Shown here in pieces: positions 37,074 through 50,367 of a DNA stretch of 64,000 nt; within the stretch, counting starts at the first letter, position 1, and each line of letters begins with the position of its first letter. Source of the stretch: Nannocystales bacterium (GTDB taxonomy: Bacteria > Myxococcota_A > Polyangia > Nannocystales > Nannocystaceae); assembly GCA_050633305.1 (NCBI GenBank), contig JBOEGF010000014.1:206879-270878 (forward strand), given 5' to 3'. The notes beneath the pieces were generated by a model. The model made no database searches. It worked only from the letters and a program-made list of their open reading frames with translations, and had not been told where the DNA came from. Both the position numbers and the translations under genes were made by a program.

Positions 37074-37919
37074 ATGAAAGCTCGATTGCTCTCGATTCCA
37101 CTCGCCCTCGGGCTGGCGTCGTGCGACGCCTCGTCCGAGGGGTCCGATCCCGAGTTCCGCATCGCCTTTGACGTGCGGGCGAACGGGGACTCGTTCCGCT
37201 GCGGCGGGAGCTACGACGGAATCGGAGTTGCGAACACGACAGTCGAACCCCTCGACATCCGACTGTACGTTCACGATGTCCACCTGGTCACGGCCAGTGG
37301 CGGTGAAGTCCCTCTCGATCTTTCGGCCGACCAGACCTGGCAGCGGGACGGTGTTGCCCTGCTCGACTTTGCCGACGATACGGGACGGTGCGCGACCGGG
37401 AGCCCACAGACCAACATGGAGATTGTGGGCACGGCAGACGTCGATGAAGATGTGGTCGGGGTCAGCTTCACACTGGGGCTCCCCACGGAGTCCAACCACA
37501 TCGACGCGGTCCGCAGCCCGGCTCCGTTCAACGCTCCCGGGATGTGGTGGAGCTGGACCGGTGGCTTCAAGTACGCGCGAATCGACGTCGCCACGCCGAC
37601 CCATCCCGCGTGGTTCCTTCACCTGGGTGCGACGAGCTGTGAGGGGAGCCCTGCAGAGGGCATCGAGTGCGCATGGACGAACGTCCCACGCATCGAACTC
37701 TCAGGCATGGACCCTCAGACCGACACGGTCGTGCTGGAACTCGGGTCGCTGTACGCAGACTCCGACCTCGATGCGCCCATCGACTACGAGAGCGACTTCA
37801 TCAACGGTTGCATGGCGTTCTCGGGCGACCCCGAGTGCGCGCCCATCTTCGAGCGCCTCGGCGTCGAGTTCGAGGGCGAACGCACCTTCGAGCAGCAGGC
37901 CTTCACCGCCGAACCATAG
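37074..37919 (+). CDS. mbnP: MbnP-family copper-binding lipoprotein
   Basis: Lipobox LASC, DIRLYVHDV, WQRDGVALLDF, MWWSWTGGFKY (WxW motif), FLHLGATSC, CMAFSGDPEC. Confidence 0.85.
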   Translation: MKARLLSIPLALGLASCDASSEGSDPEFRIAFDVRANGDSFRCGGSYDGIGVANTTVEPLDIRLYVHDVHLVTASGGEVPLDLSADQTWQRDGVALLDFADDTGRCATGSPQTNMEIVGTADVDEDVVGVSFTLGLPTESNHIDAVRSPAPFNAPGMWWSWTGGFKYARIDVATPTHPAWFLHLGATSCEGSPAEGIECAWTNVPRIELSGMDPQTDTVVLELGSLYADSDLDAPIDYESDFINGCMAFSGDPECAPIFERLGVEFEGERTFEQQAFTAEP

Positions 37920-37943
37920 AGAACCTCAGGAGGTCAAGACACG

Positions 37944-38495
37944 ATGAAGACTCTTCACCCGATCCTCTTCGCAGGGCTTCTCGTCGGCACGGTGACCGGT
38001 TGCGACGACGCCGAAGCACCCGCGACCGAAGCCGATGCGGAGCCCGGCGACCCGGCATTCATCCGCGACCCGGCGCTGGACGTCGACAACATCAGCGCCG
38101 CGGACGAGTCGAAGAGCCACAACGCGGGCATGAACTGCATGCAGTGCCATCAGTCGCTCGGCGCTGGCCTCGGACAGTTCACCGTGGCGGGCACGCTATA
38201 CGGGCCCGACGACGCGCCTGTCCCCAACGCGACGCTCGAGCTATGGACCGCACCGGAGCGACAAGGCGAGTTGGTCACGGCCATCGAGGCCGACGCCTAC
38301 GGAAACGTGTTCTCGACCGAGCCGCTGCCGTTCCCCGAGCAACGACTGTTCGTCTGGGTCGAGTCCGAGGATGCCTCGCTGAGCGCTGCCATGCCGTTCC
38401 CAACCGCGTCGGGGTCCTGCAACCACTGCCACGCTGGAGGGTTCAAAGTTCGCCTCGAGCCGCCTGCTGAGGACGACGGTGAGAGCGGCGAATAG
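37944..38495 (+). CDS. Small di-heme c-type cytochrome lipoprotein
   Basis: AGGAGG upstream, lipobox VTGC, two CxxCH motifs (CMQCH, CNHCH). Confidence 0.75.
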   Translation: MKTLHPILFAGLLVGTVTGCDDAEAPATEADAEPGDPAFIRDPALDVDNISAADESKSHNAGMNCMQCHQSLGAGLGQFTVAGTLYGPDDAPVPNATLELWTAPERQGELVTAIEADAYGNVFSTEPLPFPEQRLFVWVESEDASLSAAMPFPTASGSCNHCHAGGFKVRLEPPAEDDGESGE

Positions 38496-39588
38496 GCTCG
38501 CCTGGCTGCTCGTTGTGGCGGGGGGCTGCCAGGAGATGCCCTCTTCGTCTCCGTGGGTCTGGGAGCTTCCCATGGGGCAGCCGGCGCCGATGGTTCCCTC
38601 CGAGTCGCCGATGAGTGCCGCCCGCGTGGAGCTGGGGCGACACCTCTTCTACGACGTTCGACTCTCGGGCAACGGCGAGCAAGCGTGTGCGAGCTGCCAC
38701 GAGCAGGCGAGAGCGTTCACCGATGGTGAAGCAACTCCGGTGGGGTCGACCGGAGATCCGGTTCCGCGAAACTCGATGACCCTGACCAACGTCGCGTATC
38801 GAAACACCCTCGCGTGGTCGAACCCGGCGCTGACCGACCTCGAGTCTCATGCCCTGGTGCCGCTGTTCGGCGAGTTTCCCGTCGAGCTTGGGCTGACGGG
38901 CGTCGAGGGGCAGGTTTTTGAGCGACTCGAGAGTGACCCGTTGTACCCGGCGTTGTTCGGCGACGCGGGGTTGCCTGTCACGACCGGTGCTGTCACGTCT
39001 GCGCTCGCCTCGTTCCAGCGCACCCTGTTGTCGTACGACAGCCCCTACGACCGCTGGGTCGCGGGGGACGTGCATGCGCTCTCCGAGGCCGCTCAGCGCG
39101 GTGCGGACGTCTTCTTCTCCGAAGCGGGCGAGTGTTACCACTGCCACGGCGGATTCGACTTCACCAACGATGTGCGCACGACCGACCTCCCAGCGGGGGC
39201 ATCGGCGTTCGCAAACACGGGCCTTTACAACGTCGAGGGCACCGGACGTTATCCCGAGCCCAACGTTGGTCTCGTCGAATTCACCGGGGCTGCTCCAGAC
39301 ATGGGTCGCTTTCGGGTTCCGACGCTGCGCAATGTCGCCGTGACCGCCCCGTACATGCACGACGGCTCGGTCGAGACGCTCGAAGAGGTGGTGCGACACT
39401 ACGTGCGAGGCGGGTCGAATCACGAACAGGGTCCGTGGGCGGGCGATGGCGCCGAAAACCCCTACAAGGACAGCCTCATTCGCCCCCTCGATCTCGACGA
39501 TACTGATGTGGCGGACGTTGTTGCGTTCTTGGAGGCGCTGACGGACGAGGCGTTTCTCGAAGACCCTCGCTACGCAGACCCTTGGTGA
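38479..39588 (+). CDS. mbnH: MbnH-family di-heme enzyme (MauG/CCP superfamily)
   Basis: LGRHLFYD.RLS, CASCH, RNSMTL.NVAY, CYHCH, FRVPTLRNVAVTAPYMHDGS. Same gene cluster as mbnP. Confidence 0.85.
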   Translation: MRAANRLAWLLVVAGGCQEMPSSSPWVWELPMGQPAPMVPSESPMSAARVELGRHLFYDVRLSGNGEQACASCHEQARAFTDGEATPVGSTGDPVPRNSMTLTNVAYRNTLAWSNPALTDLESHALVPLFGEFPVELGLTGVEGQVFERLESDPLYPALFGDAGLPVTTGAVTSALASFQRTLLSYDSPYDRWVAGDVHALSEAAQRGADVFFSEAGECYHCHGGFDFTNDVRTTDLPAGASAFANTGLYNVEGTGRYPEPNVGLVEFTGAAPDMGRFRVPTLRNVAVTAPYMHDGSVETLEEVVRHYVRGGSNHEQGPWAGDGAENPYKDSLIRPLDLDDTDVADVVAFLEALTDEAFLEDPRYADPW

Positions 39589-40529: not shown

Positions 40530-40796
40530 ATGAAGCTCAAAGACATCGCGTCCACTCTCGCTGTCCTCGGTTCCGGAGCGCTCTTCCTTTCCGGTTGCGA
40601 CAAAGAGAAGCCGGCGACCGAGGTCCCCGACGCTGCCGTTCCGGCCGCCGAAGCTGGTGAAGGCTCCTGCTCAGCCGACGATCATCCCGCGGATGGCCAT
40701 TGTGGCGGTGACACGGCCGACGCCGAGGGCGAAGGCTCCTGCGGAGGCGAGAAGGCCGAAGGCGAAGCTGAGGGCGAAGGCTCCTGCGGCGGCTGA
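40530..40796 (+). CDS. Small acidic lipoprotein with EGSCGG repeats (possible MNIO/DUF692-type RiPP precursor)
   Basis: MKLKDIASTLAVLGSGALFLSGC signal/lipobox. Core has EGSCS, DGHCGG, EGSCGG, EGSCGG-stop. Confidence 0.7.
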   Translation: MKLKDIASTLAVLGSGALFLSGCDKEKPATEVPDAAVPAAEAGEGSCSADDHPADGHCGGDTADAEGEGSCGGEKAEGEAEGEGSCGG

Positions 40797-40874: not shown

Positions 40875-42407
40875 CTAGTCCAGGGGCCAGATCTCCGGCG
40901 GTCGTCGCTCGGGTGGGGGGGTCGCAGCGCCGCGCCGCTGCAGGTTGGCGATGAACAGGTCGATATACCGGAGATCATCCTCAATGTCGGCGTCGTCGTT
41001 GCGCTCGAGCCACAGCGAGACACTCTCGCGCAGCGGCTGCAGCACTCCGAGCGCGCCTGACAGATCTCCGTATGCGGAGCGCGTCGCGGCCATGTCGAAC
41101 CCGGCGTAGATGTTGAGCATGACGAACGCCTTCTCCACGCCTGTACTTTCGAACTCTCCGTTATCGGGCGTGTCTCCCGGAGGCAGAGCCGACGTGATTG
41201 GGACCTCTTGGACCACGGTCTCCTCGCTGCCGGGGACCGAGTAGCTCATGACGAGCGTTCCGACGGAGCCGGGGCCCACAGAAGCGTCCAGCGGGGTGAC
41301 CTCCGCGATGATCGCACCGCCGCCGCCACGTCGTCCGCCCGCGTCGTCGTCTGTGGCGGTGCGGTGCGCCAGCTGAAGCGCGGGGATGTCGATACTCGCC
41401 TCGTTGCCCGCGAGCTCGGCCCCTTGGGTCCCGTAGATCGCTCGCAGCGAGTACCCGTCGCTCACACTCACATCAATGCGGACGTCGGTCGCAAGGGGGA
41501 GAAGGAAGGCCTGTACCTCCTCCTCGAAGACTTCTCGGACCGCTTCGGGGTTCTCCAGGAAGTAGAACGCGCCCCCGCCAGTCACGGCGAGTTCTCGCAT
41601 GAGTTCGGGGTCGAAGCTCTGACCGATGCCGATCGTGGTGAGCCCAAACCCGAGCTCATTGTATTGCCGGGACATCTCCGCGACACGAGCATCCTCGGTG
41701 ATGCCCGAGGTGGCCTCCCCATCCGACAGCAGAATCACGCGGTTTTGGTAGCCCTCCACAGCGTGGGCCTGAACCGTGTCGTAGGCCTCACGCAGACCCG
41801 CGTAGATGTTGGTGCTGCCACCTGCTTCGATGAGCCCGATCGCTTCGGAGAACTCCGGGTCGTCGCCCGCGACGTTTTCCACGAGAATCTCCGCGGTGCC
41901 GTCGAAGGCGATGAGCGAGACCCGATCCTCCGGTCGAAGGTCGTCGAGCATGCGAAACAGGCCTTCGCGGAGGCTGGTGATGTTGGTCCCACGCATGGAG
42001 CCGGATACATCGACCGCGATAGACAAGTTGAGCGGGGGACGTTCCAGTGTCGTCGGGTCGATAGCCGTGTTCATCCCCAGCAGCATCAAGGTGCAGTTGC
42101 TGCCCGTGATCATGTTGCCCATCACGCCGAGTTGCCCGTGAAGGCAGACATCGTCGCTACAGGTCGGGGCCGGGAACTCGACCTTGTGCTCGTTGAAGAA
42201 GCCCACGTCATCGAGCGTCGCGGGGTGCGGGAGACCGCCGTCGTCGAGGATCTGTCGAAACTCGCCGAAGTCTTGTGCTCCGCCCTGGGCAACACCAGCG
42301 CCGCCAGCGGCACCCGAGGCCGCCCCTGAATCACTTTCGTCGGAGCCGCAGCCGGACGCGAGGGAGAGGACCGAGCAGACAAGCGAAATCAGTGCATTCT
42401 TCTTCAT
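40875..42407 (-). CDS. von Willebrand factor A domain lipoprotein
   Basis: Lipobox ASGC, MIDAS DVSGS, GGSTN, ILLSDG. Confidence 0.9.
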   Translation of the reverse strand: MKKNALISLVCSVLSLASGCGSDESDSGAASGAAGGAGVAQGGAQDFGEFRQILDDGGLPHPATLDDVGFFNEHKVEFPAPTCSDDVCLHGQLGVMGNMITGSNCTLMLLGMNTAIDPTTLERPPLNLSIAVDVSGSMRGTNITSLREGLFRMLDDLRPEDRVSLIAFDGTAEILVENVAGDDPEFSEAIGLIEAGGSTNIYAGLREAYDTVQAHAVEGYQNRVILLSDGEATSGITEDARVAEMSRQYNELGFGLTTIGIGQSFDPELMRELAVTGGGAFYFLENPEAVREVFEEEVQAFLLPLATDVRIDVSVSDGYSLRAIYGTQGAELAGNEASIDIPALQLAHRTATDDDAGGRRGGGGAIIAEVTPLDASVGPGSVGTLVMSYSVPGSEETVVQEVPITSALPPGDTPDNGEFESTGVEKAFVMLNIYAGFDMAATRSAYGDLSGALGVLQPLRESVSLWLERNDDADIEDDLRYIDLFIANLQRRGAATPPPERRPPEIWPLD

Positions 42408-42409
42408 CG

Positions 42410-43978
42410 TTACTCTCCTCCTCGTGCGCGGCGAATCGCGACGAGTTCAAGGTCAACTCCGAGTTCAAGCGGGCCGCTGTCGCACGCGGTATCAGCGACG
42501 AGTCGCTCTGATGCATGGACGAGGTGGAGCTCGAGGGTTTCGGTTTCGCTTTGTGTCGTGGCCGGGACCTCGGCGTCCTGTCGCACGCTGACCGACTCGA
42601 ACCCGCCGCCGACCATCGAGACTGAGACCGCACGGCGCACGGTGCCGCAAGCCTCCTCGGGAAGGGCTTCACAGGAGAGTTCGGGGTCGATCAGGGCTTG
42701 CATGCCGTAGACGGTGGAGCCGCCATTGCTGCGAAGCGCGGTGAGCGTGGTGTCGGGTTCGCCGGTCTGAGGGTCTCGGCGGGTGAGGGCGACGGCCTGA
42801 GTCACCCCGTTCGTCGAGGCATCATGCACTTCGATGAAGTCGCCCTGTGCGAAGGGAAAGGCGTCGTGCGGGAGGCACAGCTCCCACGGCGTTCCCGGAA
42901 CATCGAGCTGCTCTTCAAACCCGGTGCTGAGAGCGACTTGAACGCAGCCGTCCAATCCCTCGTCGACGCTGGATAGGATCCATTCGCCCGCGGGAGTGTC
43001 GCCCCACGCGAGGCGACTGGACGCGGACGAGGGGGTACAAGCGCCTGGCTCGGGGGCAGCGAGGGCTCCGATGCGGAAGACGAGGTCGTCCTGTGTTTCG
43101 TATGTTCCGACACCATCGTTGTCGAACGCGACCGAGATCCATCCTGTGGTATCGGGTGTGATTCCGGTCCCGTCGACGAAACTCTGTGGGTACTGGCCCT
43201 CGCGCCAGAAGACGACGGAGGGGGCGAGGTTGTCCGCGTCGATCCAAGCGGCGTGGCAACTGCGCATGGGTCGGTCCCAGAGTTCGAGGACAGGCATCGT
43301 CGCATCCGCGGCGAGCGTCCAGCTCTGCGCATCGTCGAACAGTGCGTCGCGGAGGTAGCGGGCGGGGTCCTCTTCGACGAGGTCGCAGTCGAACTCGGCC
43401 GACTCCTTCAGCGGACGGATGCGCAGCACGATGTCGAACTCGTTGGCGTTGTGGATGTACGTGTCGGCTTCGAAGGACCCAAAGAAAGGCTCTTGAACCT
43501 GACTGGTCGCGACGCAGCAGAGCATCCCCGCGGAGGCCACTGCGACCTCGCCCGTGACGTGGTGTGCAACACGCTGTGCGGCCATGCGCGGCACGAACAC
43601 GTAGCTGATCGCCAGTGCCGGCAGCGTGAGCAGATCGGTGAGGTCCGAGGTGATCGACCAAGGAAACCCGACCATGCCCATGAGTCCGGACCAGGTGTCG
43701 GCGGCGACTGGCGAGACCTGAATGGCGGAAAAGACGGCTCCGATGCCGACGTGGGCAAACGCCCAGCCGCGGCGGGAGCGAACGCGTACGAGGACGGCCA
43801 GCAGGAGTGGCGCAGCGAACAGTCCGACGACGTCGCTGAGTTTTCCGGCGAACCATCCGGGCACCAGGCCCGAGCCCTTGAGCAGATGGTCGTTGATCGC
43901 CAGCATGGCAACGGCGCCGAGCCACACGGGGTGGAGCAGCGCGCGTCGCAGCAGGGGAGTTGGGGGGGTCTCAGTCAT
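42410..43978 (-). CDS. Membrane protein with a large Cys-containing extracytoplasmic domain
   Basis: N-terminal 4-5 TM block (INDHLLK...GKLSDVVGLF...SDLTDL), then CCVATS and an acidic soluble domain. Ends 2 bp before the VWA gene. Start taken at ATG 43978. Confidence 0.7.
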   Translation of the reverse strand: MTETPPTPLLRRALLHPVWLGAVAMLAINDHLLKGSGLVPGWFAGKLSDVVGLFAAPLLLAVLVRVRSRRGWAFAHVGIGAVFSAIQVSPVAADTWSGLMGMVGFPWSITSDLTDLLTLPALAISYVFVPRMAAQRVAHHVTGEVAVASAGMLCCVATSQVQEPFFGSFEADTYIHNANEFDIVLRIRPLKESAEFDCDLVEEDPARYLRDALFDDAQSWTLAADATMPVLELWDRPMRSCHAAWIDADNLAPSVVFWREGQYPQSFVDGTGITPDTTGWISVAFDNDGVGTYETQDDLVFRIGALAAPEPGACTPSSASSRLAWGDTPAGEWILSSVDEGLDGCVQVALSTGFEEQLDVPGTPWELCLPHDAFPFAQGDFIEVHDASTNGVTQAVALTRRDPQTGEPDTTLTALRSNGGSTVYGMQALIDPELSCEALPEEACGTVRRAVSVSMVGGGFESVSVRQDAEVPATTQSETETLELHLVHASERLVADTACDSGPLELGVDLELVAIRRARGGE

Positions 43979-44008
43979 GAAAATCCTCGCAGCTAAGGGG
44001 TACGCAGG

Positions 44009-44326
44009 GGTAGTGCCGGCTCCCCGGGAAACGATCACGGGGGTGTCGTGGTGTTCGCGGATCCCGCGTGGTCTGCCGACAGGTAGGCAGGAGGTGTTGG
44101 AGCGCCTGTCCGCCCTGGCTCTCGCCGCCGCTCGGCCTGTGGGTCGGTGGGCGCGACGTTTCGGGCGTCGCTGATTCGCCTGGCGGCGTCGCCGAGGCCC
44201 CGGAGTCGCGGCAACGAGCGCGGCGTCGGTCATTTTTGGGGCTGATCCCCACCCGGAGGGGAGCCGACACGCGCCCGGATCCACAGGGTGCAAACACGGT
44301 AGTGCCCGCCGGACACGAAACGATCA
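44009..44326 (-). promoter_or_regulatory. Duplicated bipartite motif (two copies)
   Basis: GGTAGTGCC-N10-GAAACGATCA at 44009-44037 and 44298-44326, with identical boxes and different spacers. Confidence 0.55.
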
Positions 44327-44407
44327 GATCGGGATGCTGTGATTCCACATCCTCACGAAGCCACGAATTCGCGGGCCCAACGGCGGTTTTGCGGCTACCG
44401 TGAGGCC

Positions 44408-44917
44408 ATGCGCTTGGATTATTGGAAGCTCGCGGTGTTCGCGGGTGTGCTGCTCGGGGGATGCGGCGATGCCGAAAGTGACCTCTCCGACGAGATGCCG
44501 GAGGACCTCCCCGCCGGTCAATCGGCCACCGACGGTGAGACCGAATCGGCGTCGGCCTCGAGCACGACTGGGTCGGGAGCAAACGGGGGCGAGACCACGG
44601 GTGGTCCAGCCCCCGCGTGTCAGAGTTCGGACGATTGTCTCGGGCTCAACGTCTGCGTCGCGCCGTGGGATCCCGAGACACAGACCGCCGGCGAGCCCGA
44701 CTGTGCCTTCGCCTGCATCCCCTCGTATGACGAGATGCAGTGGTGTGCCGATGCCGCGGCCTGCTGCGACCCGGAGGCGATTTGTACCGCGCGGGGATAC
44801 TGCGTGCCCCCGCAGGAGCCTGGCTCTGCGGACTCCAGCTCCGGAGGCTCACCGACCAGCTCGACCGGGGATGGCTCGACGGGCGGAGACTCCACCGGAA
44901 CCGGGGGTGGGCAATGA
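44408..44917 (+). CDS. Cys-rich lipoprotein, tandem paralog 1 of 5
   Basis: Lipobox LGGC, LSDEMPEDLPAG, 10-Cys domain ending CTARGYC. Confidence 0.85.
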   Translation: MRLDYWKLAVFAGVLLGGCGDAESDLSDEMPEDLPAGQSATDGETESASASSTTGSGANGGETTGGPAPACQSSDDCLGLNVCVAPWDPETQTAGEPDCAFACIPSYDEMQWCADAAACCDPEAICTARGYCVPPQEPGSADSSSGGSPTSSTGDGSTGGDSTGTGGGQ

Positions 44918-45456
44918 GTAAGAGTCGCCAGAGTCGTTGGTTGCTCGCGTCGCTGCTACTCCTTGGTTGCGATGCCGACTCCGCGTCCGATGGTGTTGCT
45001 TCGAGTGATACCGATGTGTTCGGGGACGACATGCCCGACGATTTTCCGGCTGGCAGCTGTGCAGAGACGGCGGGCGAGGACTGTGAGACTGAGGGCGACG
45101 GCGCGGGGGAGAGCGTTGGGGATAGCGCTGTCACCGACGGTGCCCCTGCCGGCTGCGTCGCCGAAGGGTGTGTTGGACAGGGGGTCTGCGTCGCGCCGTG
45201 GGACGAAACCGCCGAGGCACTTGGCGAGTTCGAGTGTCGTTTCAGCTGCGTGCCCCTCCTTGATGACTCGTCGTGGTGCGCCGGTGACGATTCGTGTTGT
45301 GACACCGGAGCGAGGTGCACGGACCGTGGCTACTGCGTGCTCGCCGGAGAAGGCGGTTCGACCGGAAGCGGTTCCGGCGACACAGACACAGATGGATCTC
45401 CGGACACAGATGGACCTCTGGACACAGATGGATCCACGTCTGGAGGTACGGGATGA
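44914..45456 (+). CDS. Cys-rich lipoprotein, tandem paralog 2 of 5
   Basis: ATGA overlap, lipobox LLGC, FGDDMPDDFPAG, 10-Cys domain ending CTDRGYC. Three 18-bp repeats at 45385-45438. Confidence 0.85.
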   Translation: MSKSRQSRWLLASLLLLGCDADSASDGVASSDTDVFGDDMPDDFPAGSCAETAGEDCETEGDGAGESVGDSAVTDGAPAGCVAEGCVGQGVCVAPWDETAEALGEFECRFSCVPLLDDSSWCAGDDSCCDTGARCTDRGYCVLAGEGGSTGSGSGDTDTDGSPDTDGPLDTDGSTSGGTG

Positions 45457-46016
45457 CTCGGGGCCTGGTCATGCTCGCTGTCCTGTTGGTAGCGGGTCTA
45501 GGGTGTAACGGTGAGCCGAACGATTCCCTCGTCCATGACGGGCCCGGCGAGGACCTTTCTGACGAGATGCCCGAGGACCTACCCGCCGGCGAATGCAGAG
45601 CCGGCGACACCGACACTGAGGACTGCGAGATGGGTTCATCCTCGGGCGGTGGCTCGGGAGGTTCGTCGAGTCAGGACGGCGCAGGGGCAGCTTCGGAGTG
45701 CGCCATGACGGAGGAGTGCTCTGGCGCAGGGGCGTGTGCGGCGAGCTGGGAAGAGGGAGGACGGACACCTTTCTCGTGTCGGTTCACGTGCATCCCCACC
45801 TTGGACGAGGGTGCGTGGTGCCGTGACGACGCTTCGTGTTGCGATGTGGATGCGGTCTGCACCGGGCGCGGTTACTGCGTTGTTCCCCAGGGCTCCGAAG
45901 GCTTGGACAACATCATCGCCGGTCCGAAACTCTCGGATGAGATGCCCGAAGACCTTCCTGCGGGCGGCGGCACGCCGGGCGGTTGGCTCATAGGCAAGAC
46001 AGGAAACGTCCCATGA
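45453..46016 (+). CDS. Cys-rich lipoprotein, tandem paralog 3 of 5
   Basis: ATGA overlap, lipobox GLGC, LSDEMPEDLPAG present twice, 10-Cys domain ending CTGRGYC. Confidence 0.85.
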   Translation: MTRGLVMLAVLLVAGLGCNGEPNDSLVHDGPGEDLSDEMPEDLPAGECRAGDTDTEDCEMGSSSGGGSGGSSSQDGAGAASECAMTEECSGAGACAASWEEGGRTPFSCRFTCIPTLDEGAWCRDDASCCDVDAVCTGRGYCVVPQGSEGLDNIIAGPKLSDEMPEDLPAGGGTPGGWLIGKTGNVP

Positions 46017-46486
46017 ACCGAGTCATGCTCCTTCTCTTCGCGTTTGCCGGCAGTGCGTGTTTTGCACCAGGCAGGCTAACGGACGAAATGCCTGAAGACT
46101 TCCCCGCAATGGGGTGTGAGGACACGGATACGGACGCATGCGTTTCGTCGTCGGGCTCCGGCGGGGCGGGGGGATCGACGGGAGGACAAAGCTCCGCCAC
46201 CGCGCCTGCGGCGGACGATTGCGAGGCAAGCCAAACCTGCTTGGGCGAGGACTCTTGCGTCGCCGATTGGGACGCTGAAGCTGGGTCCCGCGGCCCCTAC
46301 ACCTGCCGGTTCGCCTGCGTCGCGCTGCTCGATGAGGCTTCATGGTGCCGTGACGATGCGGCCTGTTGCGATGCTTCGGCCCGGTGCACGGCGCGGGGCT
46401 ACTGCGTCCTCTCCGACTCAACGAACAGCGACGGCGCGAGTTCGGGCAGCGGGAGCACGGGCAGCGGGAGCACGGGCACGGAATGA
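46013..46486 (+). CDS. Cys-rich lipoprotein, tandem paralog 4 of 5
   Basis: ATGA overlap, lipobox GSAC, LTDEMPEDFPA, 10-Cys domain ending CTARGYC. Confidence 0.85.
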   Translation: MNRVMLLLFAFAGSACFAPGRLTDEMPEDFPAMGCEDTDTDACVSSSGSGGAGGSTGGQSSATAPAADDCEASQTCLGEDSCVADWDAEAGSRGPYTCRFACVALLDEASWCRDDAACCDASARCTARGYCVLSDSTNSDGASSGSGSTGSGSTGTE

Positions 46487-46941
46487 ACCGTCTGGCGCTG
46501 TCGCTGGTCGTGCTGCTGGCCGGGTGTGGGTCGACGGCGGGCGCGTCGGACCTGTCGGACGAGATGCCCGAAGACCTGCCCGCTGGGGGATGTCGTGACA
46601 CCGACGTTGCGGGGACGAGCGGAGGCGGAACAGGCGGCCTCGAGGGCTGCGACCAGGCCACGACCACCGGGCCAGCGGGGTCCGGCACCACCGGCACGGA
46701 GGCCGACCCGGAATGTGCTGGGGCGGGCGACTGTGACGACGGTGCGGGCGCCTGTGTCGCGGATTGGGAAGCGGGCGAGCGAGGCCCGTTCACGTGCCGG
46801 TTTGTCTGCATTCCGACGTTGGACGAAACCTCATGGTGCAGCGACGATGCGTCGTGCTGCGACGCAGCGGCGAGCTGCACACCCCGTGGCTACTGCATCG
46901 TCTCTGGCGGCTCCGACGGCAGCTCAACCAGCGGAGACTGA
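46483..46941 (+). CDS. Cys-rich lipoprotein, tandem paralog 5 of 5
   Basis: ATGA overlap, lipobox LAGC, LSDEMPEDLPAG, 10-Cys domain ending CTPRGYC. Confidence 0.85.
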   Translation: MNRLALSLVVLLAGCGSTAGASDLSDEMPEDLPAGGCRDTDVAGTSGGGTGGLEGCDQATTTGPAGSGTTGTEADPECAGAGDCDDGAGACVADWEAGERGPFTCRFVCIPTLDETSWCSDDASCCDAAASCTPRGYCIVSGGSDGSSTSGD

Positions 46942-49680
46942 CCCGCTGAGCTCGATCGTATCGAGGAGCCACAGCACATGGTCCAGCAGTGACGCCTCGG
47001 GGTCCGCGGTCGAGGCACTCTCGCGTGCGACTTGGGCGAGGGTACGCGCGCGTCGCAGGTCGACGGGCATGTTTGCGACGGCGAGGTAGTAGCGGACCCG
47101 CCTCGCGAACCTTCCGTCCGAGCCGCTGGCGATGGGGAACACGTTGAGCAGAGGTTCAAGCCACTCGCGCGCGAGTTTGGGCTGTCCACGGTTGACATGG
47201 GCGCAGCCGATCAGGAGGCGGTAGCGACCCAACCTCGCGGGCTCGTTGGAGCCGAGCTTGGTCAAGATGCCGAGCCCCGCCTCCAGGCTTCGAATCGCCT
47301 CGTCGTAACGCCGAGCCTCGTACTGCGCGGAGCCAAGGTTGAAGAGGTTCTTTGCGACACCCGGGTGGTCGTGACCGTCGACTTGTTTGCGGAGGACCAG
47401 CGCCCGTTCGAGGGTCGCGATGGCGCGGGCTGAGTCGCCTTGTGCCTTGTACGCGGTGCCGAGGTTTCCGAGCACGACCGGTACGAAGGGGTGCTCTGCG
47501 CCGAGTGTGTTTTGAAAACTCGCTTTGGCGCGTTCGAGCACTTCCACGGCCCGCTTGGGCTCGTTGCGCGTGATGTAGAGACCCCCGAGGCTGGTCAAAG
47601 CGCGCGCGGTCTGGGGATGGTCCTCGCCGTAGATTCTTATGTATGTGACGAGGGCCGAGGTGTAGTGGTCCAGGGCGTCGTCGAGTTGACGCCCGACTCG
47701 ATCTGCGCCGCCGAGGTTCATGTCGAGGCCCGCTTGTAAGAGGGGGTCGGCACCAAGCATGCGCAGGACCGCGCCGGCATCGGCGCCTAGCGACCGAGCC
47801 TCGGCGTGTCGTTCTGCGTCGCGGCCGACGATGTAGATCAACCGAATCAGCGCGAGTGCCCTCGTCGTATGATCGTCGGCGACCTCGGCGAGGCGGAGCG
47901 CGTCACGCAAGCTCTTCTCCGCCGCTGGGTAGTTGCCCGTGCGCTCGGTGTATTGGCCCTGAACGAGGAGCCCGGCCGCCTCGGTGCTGGGGTCGTCGTA
48001 TCGCCGGCCCGCGGCAATGACACCATCGGCAAGCTCGATGGCGCGGTTGTAGTGCGCCAACCCGCCGTGAGCCCGAGCGCGGGCGAGTTGGGCATGTGCC
48101 TGATTGAGCGCCTCGGCCGCCTCGGGTGCTCGTGCCACGGAGAAGGCCTTGAGCCTTCGGGGGTCGGCGCAAGCCTCGACCGGCGCGAGGGTGACGACGG
48201 CTTGCACCGCCTGTTGCGCGATGCCTTCTTCGCCGGTCGAGAGCACACCAACCAGCTCTTCGACGGTCCTGCGTCGATTCTCGAGGCAGTGCGCCTGGCG
48301 TTCAAGCATGACTGCATCGGCGCTCTCGACCAGATTCGCTGTGCAGTGTGCTTCGGAGCCGCGCGCCCAGTCGTCAACGTAGGTACTGAGCATGCGGTCG
48401 ACCGTGGACCACGTTGCAGCAGCGTACGGGGTGTTCGGCTGGAGGAGCGCGGCTTCAACGGAGGCCTTGCGCTCGTGCCAGAAAGCCTGAAGCGGCGCAC
48501 CCGCATCATCGCAGACTCCGACCTCGAGGGGGTCGGGTCGCGTGCCCGCATAGACCGCTCCTGCGAGAACACTGGCCCCCACGAATCCGAAACCGACGCG
48601 CCGCAGCGAGCGTAGCGGGCTCTCATGTAGCGCCTCCACCAACGCGCTCATCGATGCGAACCGGTCTCCAGGGTCCGTTGCGAGCCCTGTTCGTAGAGTC
48701 TCGAAGATTCGGCGAGGGGCGGTCGCGGTGCCGGGTGGGGCTTGAATGCGACCGGTGACGACATTGCCGGCGAGCTCTCCGTAGGTTCGCCCGGCGAACG
48801 GACGGACGTCGGTCAGCGCCTCCCACAACGAGACGCAGAAGGCGAATTGGTCGCTGGCCGCCGTTGTTGGGGACGCATTGTGCTGCTCGGGAGCCATGTA
48901 CGCCGGGGTGCCCATGATCGCCCCGGTCTGCGTGAGGGTTGCGGACTGTTCGTTCCTCGGTTGCTCATCTGGGATCGTCGGAGTCGAAATGTCCGAGCGG
49001 GATAGGCCGAAGTCCATCACCCGAGCGCGGCCGTCCTCGCCGAGCATGACGTTGTCGGGCTTGAAGTCCCGGTGCACGATGCCTGCCGCGTGCGCTGCCT
49101 CGAGGCCCCGCGCTGCATCGCAGTACACCCGGACGATCTCCTGCCAATCGTGAGTTTCTCGCGCCCACTCGCGGAGCGTGGCTCCGTCGATGTACTCCAT
49201 GGCCACGAAGACCTGTTCCTCGAACTTCCCCACCTCGTGAACTGTGACGACGTTCGGATGGTTGAGCCGCGCCATCGCCTGGGCTTCACGTTGTAGGCGG
49301 CTGGTCCCGTTGGAGCCTCGGGTCGCATGTTCTGCGAGGTCCGGTCGAAGGAGTTTGAGCGCGACTTTTCGGTCCAGCCCAGGGTCGTAGGCGCTGTAGA
49401 CGACACCCATGCCCCCGGCCCCGAGGCGGTCGAGGATTCGAAAGCGCCCGATGCGCTCGGGGTCGTCCGGGGGCGGAGGAGCCGAAGCCCCGCCCCGTGC
49501 TCCGTGACCCGTACCCTGCGTGCCCTGGCTCGGCGCGGAAGCGGGCGCGCGGTCGCCAAACAGCTTGGCCCGGGCGCCTGCCCGAATGCGCGCCCGATCG
49601 CGGGCCTCCACCTCGGGGGCCGGTCCCATTGCACCCTCGCCATCGCGGGGGGCTGGGCCATCGGGCGGGGTGTCGGACAT
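46924..49680 (-). CDS. Membrane Ser/Thr protein kinase with C-terminal TPR repeats
   Basis: LGAGGMG, VALK, VHRDFKPDN, DFGLS, GTPAYMAPEQ, a TM helix, and kinesin-light-chain-type TPRs (GEDHPQTA, GAEHP). Confidence 0.95.
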   Translation of the reverse strand: MSDTPPDGPAPRDGEGAMGPAPEVEARDRARIRAGARAKLFGDRAPASAPSQGTQGTGHGARGGASAPPPPDDPERIGRFRILDRLGAGGMGVVYSAYDPGLDRKVALKLLRPDLAEHATRGSNGTSRLQREAQAMARLNHPNVVTVHEVGKFEEQVFVAMEYIDGATLREWARETHDWQEIVRVYCDAARGLEAAHAAGIVHRDFKPDNVMLGEDGRARVMDFGLSRSDISTPTIPDEQPRNEQSATLTQTGAIMGTPAYMAPEQHNASPTTAASDQFAFCVSLWEALTDVRPFAGRTYGELAGNVVTGRIQAPPGTATAPRRIFETLRTGLATDPGDRFASMSALVEALHESPLRSLRRVGFGFVGASVLAGAVYAGTRPDPLEVGVCDDAGAPLQAFWHERKASVEAALLQPNTPYAAATWSTVDRMLSTYVDDWARGSEAHCTANLVESADAVMLERQAHCLENRRRTVEELVGVLSTGEEGIAQQAVQAVVTLAPVEACADPRRLKAFSVARAPEAAEALNQAHAQLARARAHGGLAHYNRAIELADGVIAAGRRYDDPSTEAAGLLVQGQYTERTGNYPAAEKSLRDALRLAEVADDHTTRALALIRLIYIVGRDAERHAEARSLGADAGAVLRMLGADPLLQAGLDMNLGGADRVGRQLDDALDHYTSALVTYIRIYGEDHPQTARALTSLGGLYITRNEPKRAVEVLERAKASFQNTLGAEHPFVPVVLGNLGTAYKAQGDSARAIATLERALVLRKQVDGHDHPGVAKNLFNLGSAQYEARRYDEAIRSLEAGLGILTKLGSNEPARLGRYRLLIGCAHVNRGQPKLAREWLEPLLNVFPIASGSDGRFARRVRYYLAVANMPVDLRRARTLAQVARESASTADPEASLLDHVLWLLDTIELSGSVSAG

Positions 49681-49740
49681 CTACGGCCGATCATGCCTCG
49701 GTGAGGCCCGGGCACGCAAAGCGGCTGTTACTCTCCGCCC

Positions 49741-50367
49741 GTGGCCACGGACATGGAGCTGCTCGAAGCCTGGCGCGGCGGTGACCGCGAGAGCGGTAGC
49801 GAGCTGTTCGAACGCCACTTTGACAGCATTTGCCGGTTCTTCGCGAACAAGACCGATCGCGACGTCGACGACATGGTGCAGCGGACGTTCGCGGCGTGTG
49901 TCGAGGGCAAGGAGCGGTTTCGCGGTCAGTCTTCGTTTCGTACCTACCTCTTCGGCGTCGCGCACAATGTGCTGAGGGCCTCGCTGCGCAAGCGACGGCG
50001 GGACAACGATCGCTTCGATCTTGGCATCACAAGCGTCCACGACCTTGGGTTGAGCCCGACCGTGCTCGTGGCCAAGCGCAAGGAACAGACGTTGACCCTC
50101 CAGGCCCTCCGCCGAATCCCGGTCGAGCACCAGGTCGTGCTGGAGCTGTACTACTGGGAAGAGATGACGGCGAAGGACCTCGGCGAGGTCCTCGAGATCC
50201 CCGAGGGAACGGTCCGCGGTCGCATCCGTCGCGCCAAGAAACTCCTCGAAGAGCAACTCAAGATCCTCTCCGACGATGACCGCATCCTCAAGAGCACGAT
50301 CAGTGGTCTCGAGACATGGGCCCGTGAGCTCCGTGCACAGGTCCTTCCGGGCGACAACTCGAGCTGA
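49741..50367 (+). CDS. ECF-type RNA polymerase sigma factor
   Basis: DMELLEAWRGGD, DDMVQRTF, SFRTYLFGVA, region 4 LEIPEGTVRGRIRRAK. Divergent from the kinase. Confidence 0.92.
   Translation: MATDMELLEAWRGGDRESGSELFERHFDSICRFFANKTDRDVDDMVQRTFAACVEGKERFRGQSSFRTYLFGVAHNVLRASLRKRRRDNDRFDLGITSVHDLGLSPTVLVAKRKEQTLTLQALRRIPVEHQVVLELYYWEEMTAKDLGEVLEIPEGTVRGRIRRAKKLLEEQLKILSDDDRILKSTISGLETWARELRAQVLPGDNSS

Follow-up and report, generated by a model that had tools for sequence, protein, structure and literature searches.

Two described VWA-MIDAS lipoproteins, CglB of Myxococcus (PMC9946355) and Bd0875 of Bdellovibrio (PMC11003981), act as surface adhesins according to the accessible parts of the respective reports. 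The accessible text of the Lipocone paper (Burroughs et al., eLife 2025, PMC12419801) proposes Ser/Thr lipidation in trans for Skillet-1, reads Skillet-3 as signalling and ties the variability of Skillet-3 ectodomains to conflict. The CRD1 domain of Dickkopf proteins pairs its cysteines as C1-C3, C2-C4, C5-C8, C6-C9 and C7-C10, with a knot in the C-lobe (PMC6078440). The locus described here lies in a 64,000-nucleotide stretch of a Nannocystales genome (the window). Five tandem lipoprotein genes, whose products carry a short acidic tag and a 10-Cys domain with the Dickkopf CRD1 cysteine framework, stand head to head with an operon for a Skillet-3 Lipocone protein and a VWA lipoprotein. As in the CglB/Glt platform and Bd0875, a VWA-MIDAS lipoprotein would be accompanied by accessory envelope partners. 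Unlike in CglB/Glt, the VWA protein of the window is of the ITIH/8s05-like type and no beta-barrel partners are encoded nearby; none of the 13 proteins scanned matched the NCBIfam gliding families. In contrast to this locus, neither a VWA partner nor a Cys-rich array is named for Skillet-3 in the accessible text of the Lipocone paper, and none of the papers listed in literature searches, as far as the listings show, describes the tagged array. The module is undescribed and lineage-restricted, its parts being of known kinds and their combination and the tag new. The arrangement was seen only in uncultured Nannocystaceae, a narrow range with no cultured carrier among the records compared.

Five tandem lipoprotein genes with a common layout

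The array occupies the forward strand and consists of gene 1 (44408-44917, 169 aa), gene 2 (44914-45456, 180 aa), gene 3 (45453-46016, 187 aa), gene 4 (46013-46486, 157 aa) and gene 5 (46483-46941, 152 aa), the 3' end of which shares 18 nt with the end of a convergent kinase ORF. All four junctions are ATGA stop/start overlaps, as an earlier note on this DNA had described, and alignment confirmed the layout given there, with a lipobox Cys (Cys19 in gene 1), the tag motif, a linker and a domain of ten invariant Cys. The motif of gene 2 reads FGDDMPDDFPA, its G and D being variants that the pattern in that note permitted. Two features had been overlooked, namely an extra Cys pair directly after the motif in genes 2-5, which gene 1 does not have, and another complete motif towards the C-terminal end of gene 3, starting at about 45933-45936. 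The lipobox Cys is invariant in 51 of 51 aligned members of the domain family, as expected of a bacterial lipoprotein signal, and lipidation is predicted; the lipobox of gene 4 is weaker (GSAC). Domain identity among the five paralogs is 45-65%, and where residues are shared about half are encoded by different codons; the duplications are therefore old. At another locus (L115, G378:C359), the N-terminal halves of two array genes are identical, which indicates either that the duplication is very recent or that the assembly has repeated the segment. Two more copies of the domain, unlinked, are present in this genome (G000:C21:16070-16543 and G000:C12:60545-60916), the former having no tag and additional Cys, and tag-less singleton domain genes in most genomes of the family have a conserved neighbourhood of their own.

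The 10-Cys domain weakly resembles Dickkopf CRD1

The earlier statement that the domain belongs to no recognised family holds at the Pfam and NCBIfam cut-offs, and no confident match to a characterised family was found, but it does not hold for the cysteine framework, which is that of Dickkopf_N (CRD1): ten Cys, a CC at positions 7-8 and the two-lobed spacing of a hairpin and a knottin-type half. Dickkopf CRD1 was the top but weak fold match, and the nearest known structures are Dkk4 CRD1 (PDB 5o57; Pfam PF04706) and the Draxin chain of PDB 5z5k. PF04706 gave no match to the five window proteins at E<=0.1 and weakly matched 14 of 55 members of the domain family (best E 0.0055); Toxin_23 matched 20 of 55 (best E 0.00024) and DUF7107 6 of 55 (best E 0.049). 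The C-terminal six Cys follow the C-C-CC-C-C pattern of knottins (inhibitor cystine knot), and squash inhibitors superpose on the modelled domain at 0.9-1.6 A over 21-25 residues. Unlike knottin peptides, the array domain is joined to a 4-Cys hairpin lobe and is predicted to be membrane-anchored. By features, the closest named ESM Atlas clusters were Myxococcota Cys-rich Dickkopf_N / DUF7107 proteins, with scores of 0.75-0.80 that count as leads only (below 0.9).

A search of 1.84 billion representatives returned 169 domain proteins at E<=0.001, nearly all of 100-260 aa among the matches listed and, where the database gives a name, from Nannocystaceae or Myxococcales. Of the 71 other family genomes, 64 contain the domain; outside the family, two marginal matches (E 1e-4 and 9.6e-4) were found among 297 genomes. 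The array is old and conserved, since all six congeneric genomes hold 3-5 copies, and homologs are not confined to motif-less singletons. Its positions are orthologous, first genes grouping with first genes in the domain tree, and so on. The gene 1 domain is 89-90% identical to those of two congeners, comparable to the VWA protein (82-90%), and the other genes are 66-78% identical to their best orthologs. Copy number varies from 1 to 5 across loci, which argues against the fixed stoichiometry once considered for the set. This variation, together with the variable binding loops that are frequent on knottin-like scaffolds and the link to conflict drawn for the variability of Skillet-3 ectodomains in the accessible Lipocone text, might point to kin-recognition receptors or immunity variants, a possibility raised in the earlier note, under diversifying selection. 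However, positional orthologs are 66-90% identical between species and paralogs 45-65%, gene 1 is about as conserved as the VWA gene, rapid diversification between close relatives was not seen in the species-level comparison, and no toxin gene occurs among the neighbours scanned. Because the copies are old and positionally orthologous, a reading as recognition or immunity alleles is disfavoured and appears most improbable.

An acidic tag restricted to the domain family

The tag has the consensus D-[YEF]-[MI]-[PD]-[ED]-D-[LVF]-P; a short disulfide loop usually comes next. Among 120 instances, Met is present in 100 and Pro in 119, and two positions are acidic in 88% and 81%. Pairwise codon comparisons among six motif copies gave 63 synonymous and 27 non-synonymous differences out of 150, in support of the protein-level selection proposed before. 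With a motif matrix, the five array ORFs scored 30.8-33.7 and no other ORF among the 30,399 of the genome scored above 17.1, the positives being partly circular since the matrix was built from 55 motif instances of the array and related loci. Occurrence in the five array ORFs by chance is excluded. The motif is carried by 5 of the 791 lipoprotein-like ORFs of the genome, a confinement that does not fit the general sorting signal previously suggested.

Across loci, 59 of 78 linked domain genes carry the tag, and 15 of the 19 tag-less ones are the last gene of their array. It is also present on 7 of 51 unlinked domain genes (a selection of those found, with 4 genes on broken contigs counted separately), all seven from genera that also have a linked array. 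A tag profile matched at E<0.02 in 28 of 72 family genomes. These belong without exception to six array-bearing genera, every match falls by its coordinates on a domain gene, and there was no match at this threshold in genera that have the domain and the Skillet-3/VWA pair unlinked; four weaker matches (E 0.024-0.029) were noted in the same 72 genomes. In a seventh array genus (G012) the tag is degenerate. The second tag of gene 3 is kept at the C-terminus of its orthologs, recurring in G001, G006 and five further database proteins, which indicates that the tag functions independently of the lipid anchor, in the manner of a linear docking motif.

The tag is restricted to the 10-Cys domain family, and it could accordingly be imagined to bind its own Cys domain or that of an adjacent copy, so that paralogs chain or cluster and the link to the Skillet-3/VWA pair reflects shared regulation only. 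Such self-assembly would be consistent with the overlap, and hence translational coupling, of 28 of 49 internal junctions across array loci, with the two tags on gene 3 and with tag-less last genes, which could cap a chain. Against it, tag and domain are both strongly acidic (domain D+E 11-14, K+R 1-5), and single-copy tagged genes exist (L042, L044 and L117) in which the linkage is still kept. We regard self-assembly as unlikely.

The divergent Skillet-3/VWA operon

The gene facing the array (42410-43978, reverse strand) encodes a 522-aa Skillet-3 Lipocone membrane protein with a signal-like helix ending in invariant A-T-S and two beta-rich extracytoplasmic domains with 8 Cys. It gave no match in a Pfam scan. 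Residues 16-130 share the pattern HP...NDH.LK...GKLSD...D..DL..LP with Skillet-3 Lipocones in the accessible supplement (PMC12419801), compared by eye for 30 of the 166 matching rows, and the protein has the Lipocone+TM+X layout of Skillet-3 proteins in the accessible part of the preprint (bioRxiv 10.1101/2025.01.14.632903). The Asp in H2 and DxxD in H4 that mark Skillet-3 are present as the invariant D49, D112 and D115. From the ExxQ in H3, a general Skillet feature, Q87 is there and the Glu is absent, and the accessible Skillet-3 rows mostly lack it too. The model predicts helices at 17-36, 41-63, 69-88, 90-102, 113-134 and 141-156, followed by the beta domains, with the helical handle between H3 and H4. 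The fifth helix (residues 141-159 region) ends in A-T-S in 116 of 120 homologs, regardless of ectodomain. In five genomes of this genus, the same ectodomain family follows a stand-alone A-T-S signal and lacks the Lipocone, and three genomes of genus g2 have a shortened form of it after an ordinary Cys lipobox (L100, L160-L163 and L090-L092 for these swaps). The exchange of A-T-S with a Cys lipobox suggests that Skillet-3 lipidates its own Ser/Thr box, a sequence clue to its role.

Behind it, the VWA lipoprotein gene (40875-42407, reverse strand, 510 aa) encodes an intact MIDAS (D-x-S-x-S, T, D), the residues of which (D133, S135, S137, T199 and D229) are conserved in array-linked and unlinked copies. 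The nearest solved relatives are PDB 8s05 and the inter-alpha-trypsin inhibitor heavy chains, and the C-terminus ends in a conserved P-x-x-W-P-x-D. Within the family, 63 of 71 genomes hold the Skillet-3 gene. In a genome collection, the VWA gene lies beside it in 59 of the best 80 of at least 487 confirmed loci (L172-L251). Domain and tag occur together in 12 of these 59, which probably overlap array genomes already counted, and neither occurs in the other 47; among the same best 80 loci, both are absent at 14 of 14 RefSeq-type records of named strains (Sorangium, Nannocystis, Polyangium and Chondromyces). The comparison thus exposes the Skillet-3/VWA pair as an operon widespread in myxobacteria and also found in Bradymonadales, usually without an array, and the array is therefore a lineage-specific add-on to an old myxobacterial operon.

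Constant linkage and a possible docking function

Among the loci read, 28 contain the domain together with the Skillet-3 gene, and in every one of them array and Skillet-3 gene diverge, with the VWA gene following the latter. These loci span 7 genera and 1-5 copies, single-copy cases included, and this constancy gives the array the system-level context that had been supposed. Co-expression of the array genes, proposed earlier, is made probable by the ATGA overlaps. A TAnnnT (-10-like) hexamer lies at 44395-44400 on the forward strand, 7 nt before the ATG of gene 1, and 21 of 27 first genes have one at a similar distance (about 7 nt) from their ATG, against a background of 0.5%, a pattern suggestive of leaderless transcripts. 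In congeners, roughly 140 bp separate the two divergent starts. In the window, the intergenic region (about 43990-44330) is some 288 bp longer and contains the partner's promoter-like segment twice (44009 and 44298); in the genome as a whole it is single-copy.

What is directly observed is the anatomy, the conserved tag and its confinement to the domain family, and the constant head-to-head linkage. On our preferred but tentative reading, the array supplies accessory binding subunits to an adhesin-like envelope complex, in which the tag would hold them on the Skillet-3/VWA pair. Array and partner operon would be transcribed from one compact two-way promoter region. Each array protein would be exported and would carry a lipid anchor and, on a flexible Ser/Thr/Gly stalk, an oxidised domain of two-lobed Dkk-CRD1-like fold, and the acidic tag, usually with its short disulfide loop, would serve as a docking peptide on the Skillet-3/VWA pair, its Met/Leu/Pro residues lying in a groove and one acidic residue possibly completing the MIDAS metal site of the VWA domain. 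The fixed paralogs may then provide several different ligand-binding tips for the core complex, with gene 3 being two-armed. Docking is favoured by the constant linkage, by the tag being common on linked and rare on unlinked genes, by the second tag kept in gene-3 orthologs, by the invariant MIDAS residues and by the adhesin role of CglB and Bd0875. Against it, the Skillet-3/VWA pair lacks array and tag in 47 of 59 loci and so does not need them, 19 of 78 linked genes have no tag, no single acidic tag position is invariant among the 120 instances, though a strict MIDAS ligand would suggest one, and few partner residues are specific to array-linked copies, none of them a conserved Lys/Arg that could pair with an acidic tag.

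Gain of tag and linkage maps to one or two branches (two changes on the VWA tree, three on the domain tree). Therefore, their correlation does not represent independent events, and inherited synteny explains it equally well. The array might accordingly be an ordinary paralog expansion beside an unrelated operon, with the tag as a private structural or Met/Asp/Glu metal-binding element, Met and acids being its conserved residues. The partner pairs that mostly lack an array and the tagged orphans among unlinked genes (7 of 51) point the same way. However, linkage and orientation stay constant in 28 of 28 loci and 7 genera while other neighbours change, and the isolated C-terminal tag is conserved without the Cys loop; we consider such an expansion unlikely.

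The array proteins form a small, unnamed bacterial family that unites an animal-type Dkk-CRD1/knottin framework with a 12-residue tag of sharp specificity and two named candidate partners, so that binding can be tested directly with a synthetic peptide and recombinant domains. In its boldest form, which we judge quite unlikely, the module would be an integrin-like surface receptor of uncultured Nannocystaceae, in which a MIDAS VWA lipoprotein and a Skillet-3 protein self-lipidating at its A-T-S Ser/Thr are decorated with interchangeable Dickkopf/knottin-fold lipoproteins that plug in via the acidic tag. Bacteria would then possess a plug-in code for cystine-knot modules of animal type, as well as a second, non-Cys route to lipoproteins.

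Other neighbours

A Ser/Thr kinase-TPR membrane gene (46924-49680, reverse strand) is convergent with the array, and an ECF sigma factor gene (49741-50367, forward strand) stands head to head with it. TPR grooves accommodate extended acidic peptides, and the tag or the domain might be a periplasmic ligand of the TPR region of this receptor kinase, which would in turn control the neighbouring ECF sigma. A full-length convergent kinase-TPR gene lies within 1.5 kb in 13 of 28 loci, some misses being contig ends, with an ECF sigma gene behind in many. This makes the kinase a frequent and not a constant neighbour, whereas the divergent Skillet-3/VWA pair is there in 28 of 28, and the weight that the earlier note had placed on it shifts to that pair. 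The kinase is absent beside the tagged genes of genera g15, g16 and g9 in the stretches read, where contig ends again account for some misses. Moreover, the genome has 270 kinase ORFs, 43 of them with a similar TPR region, and 19% of it lies within 3 kb (<=3 kb) of one. The ligand role is very unlikely on these counts, and the kinase-TPR and ECF sigma genes are probably outside the module. The pair (46924-50367), which is followed by an RlmN-like radical SAM gene, is one of many kinase/ECF pairs in the genome.

On the other side of the VWA gene, a small lipoprotein-like ORF (40533-40796, forward strand) with repeated E-G-S-C-G/G-H-C-G motifs is conserved in the genus and weakly matches the HvfA-type RiPP metallophore model (E 0.34). 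Further along, a three-gene unit (37074-39588, forward strand) includes a small c-type cytochrome lipoprotein, and its last gene encodes an MbnH-family di-heme enzyme (match to TIGR04039 above the cut-off).
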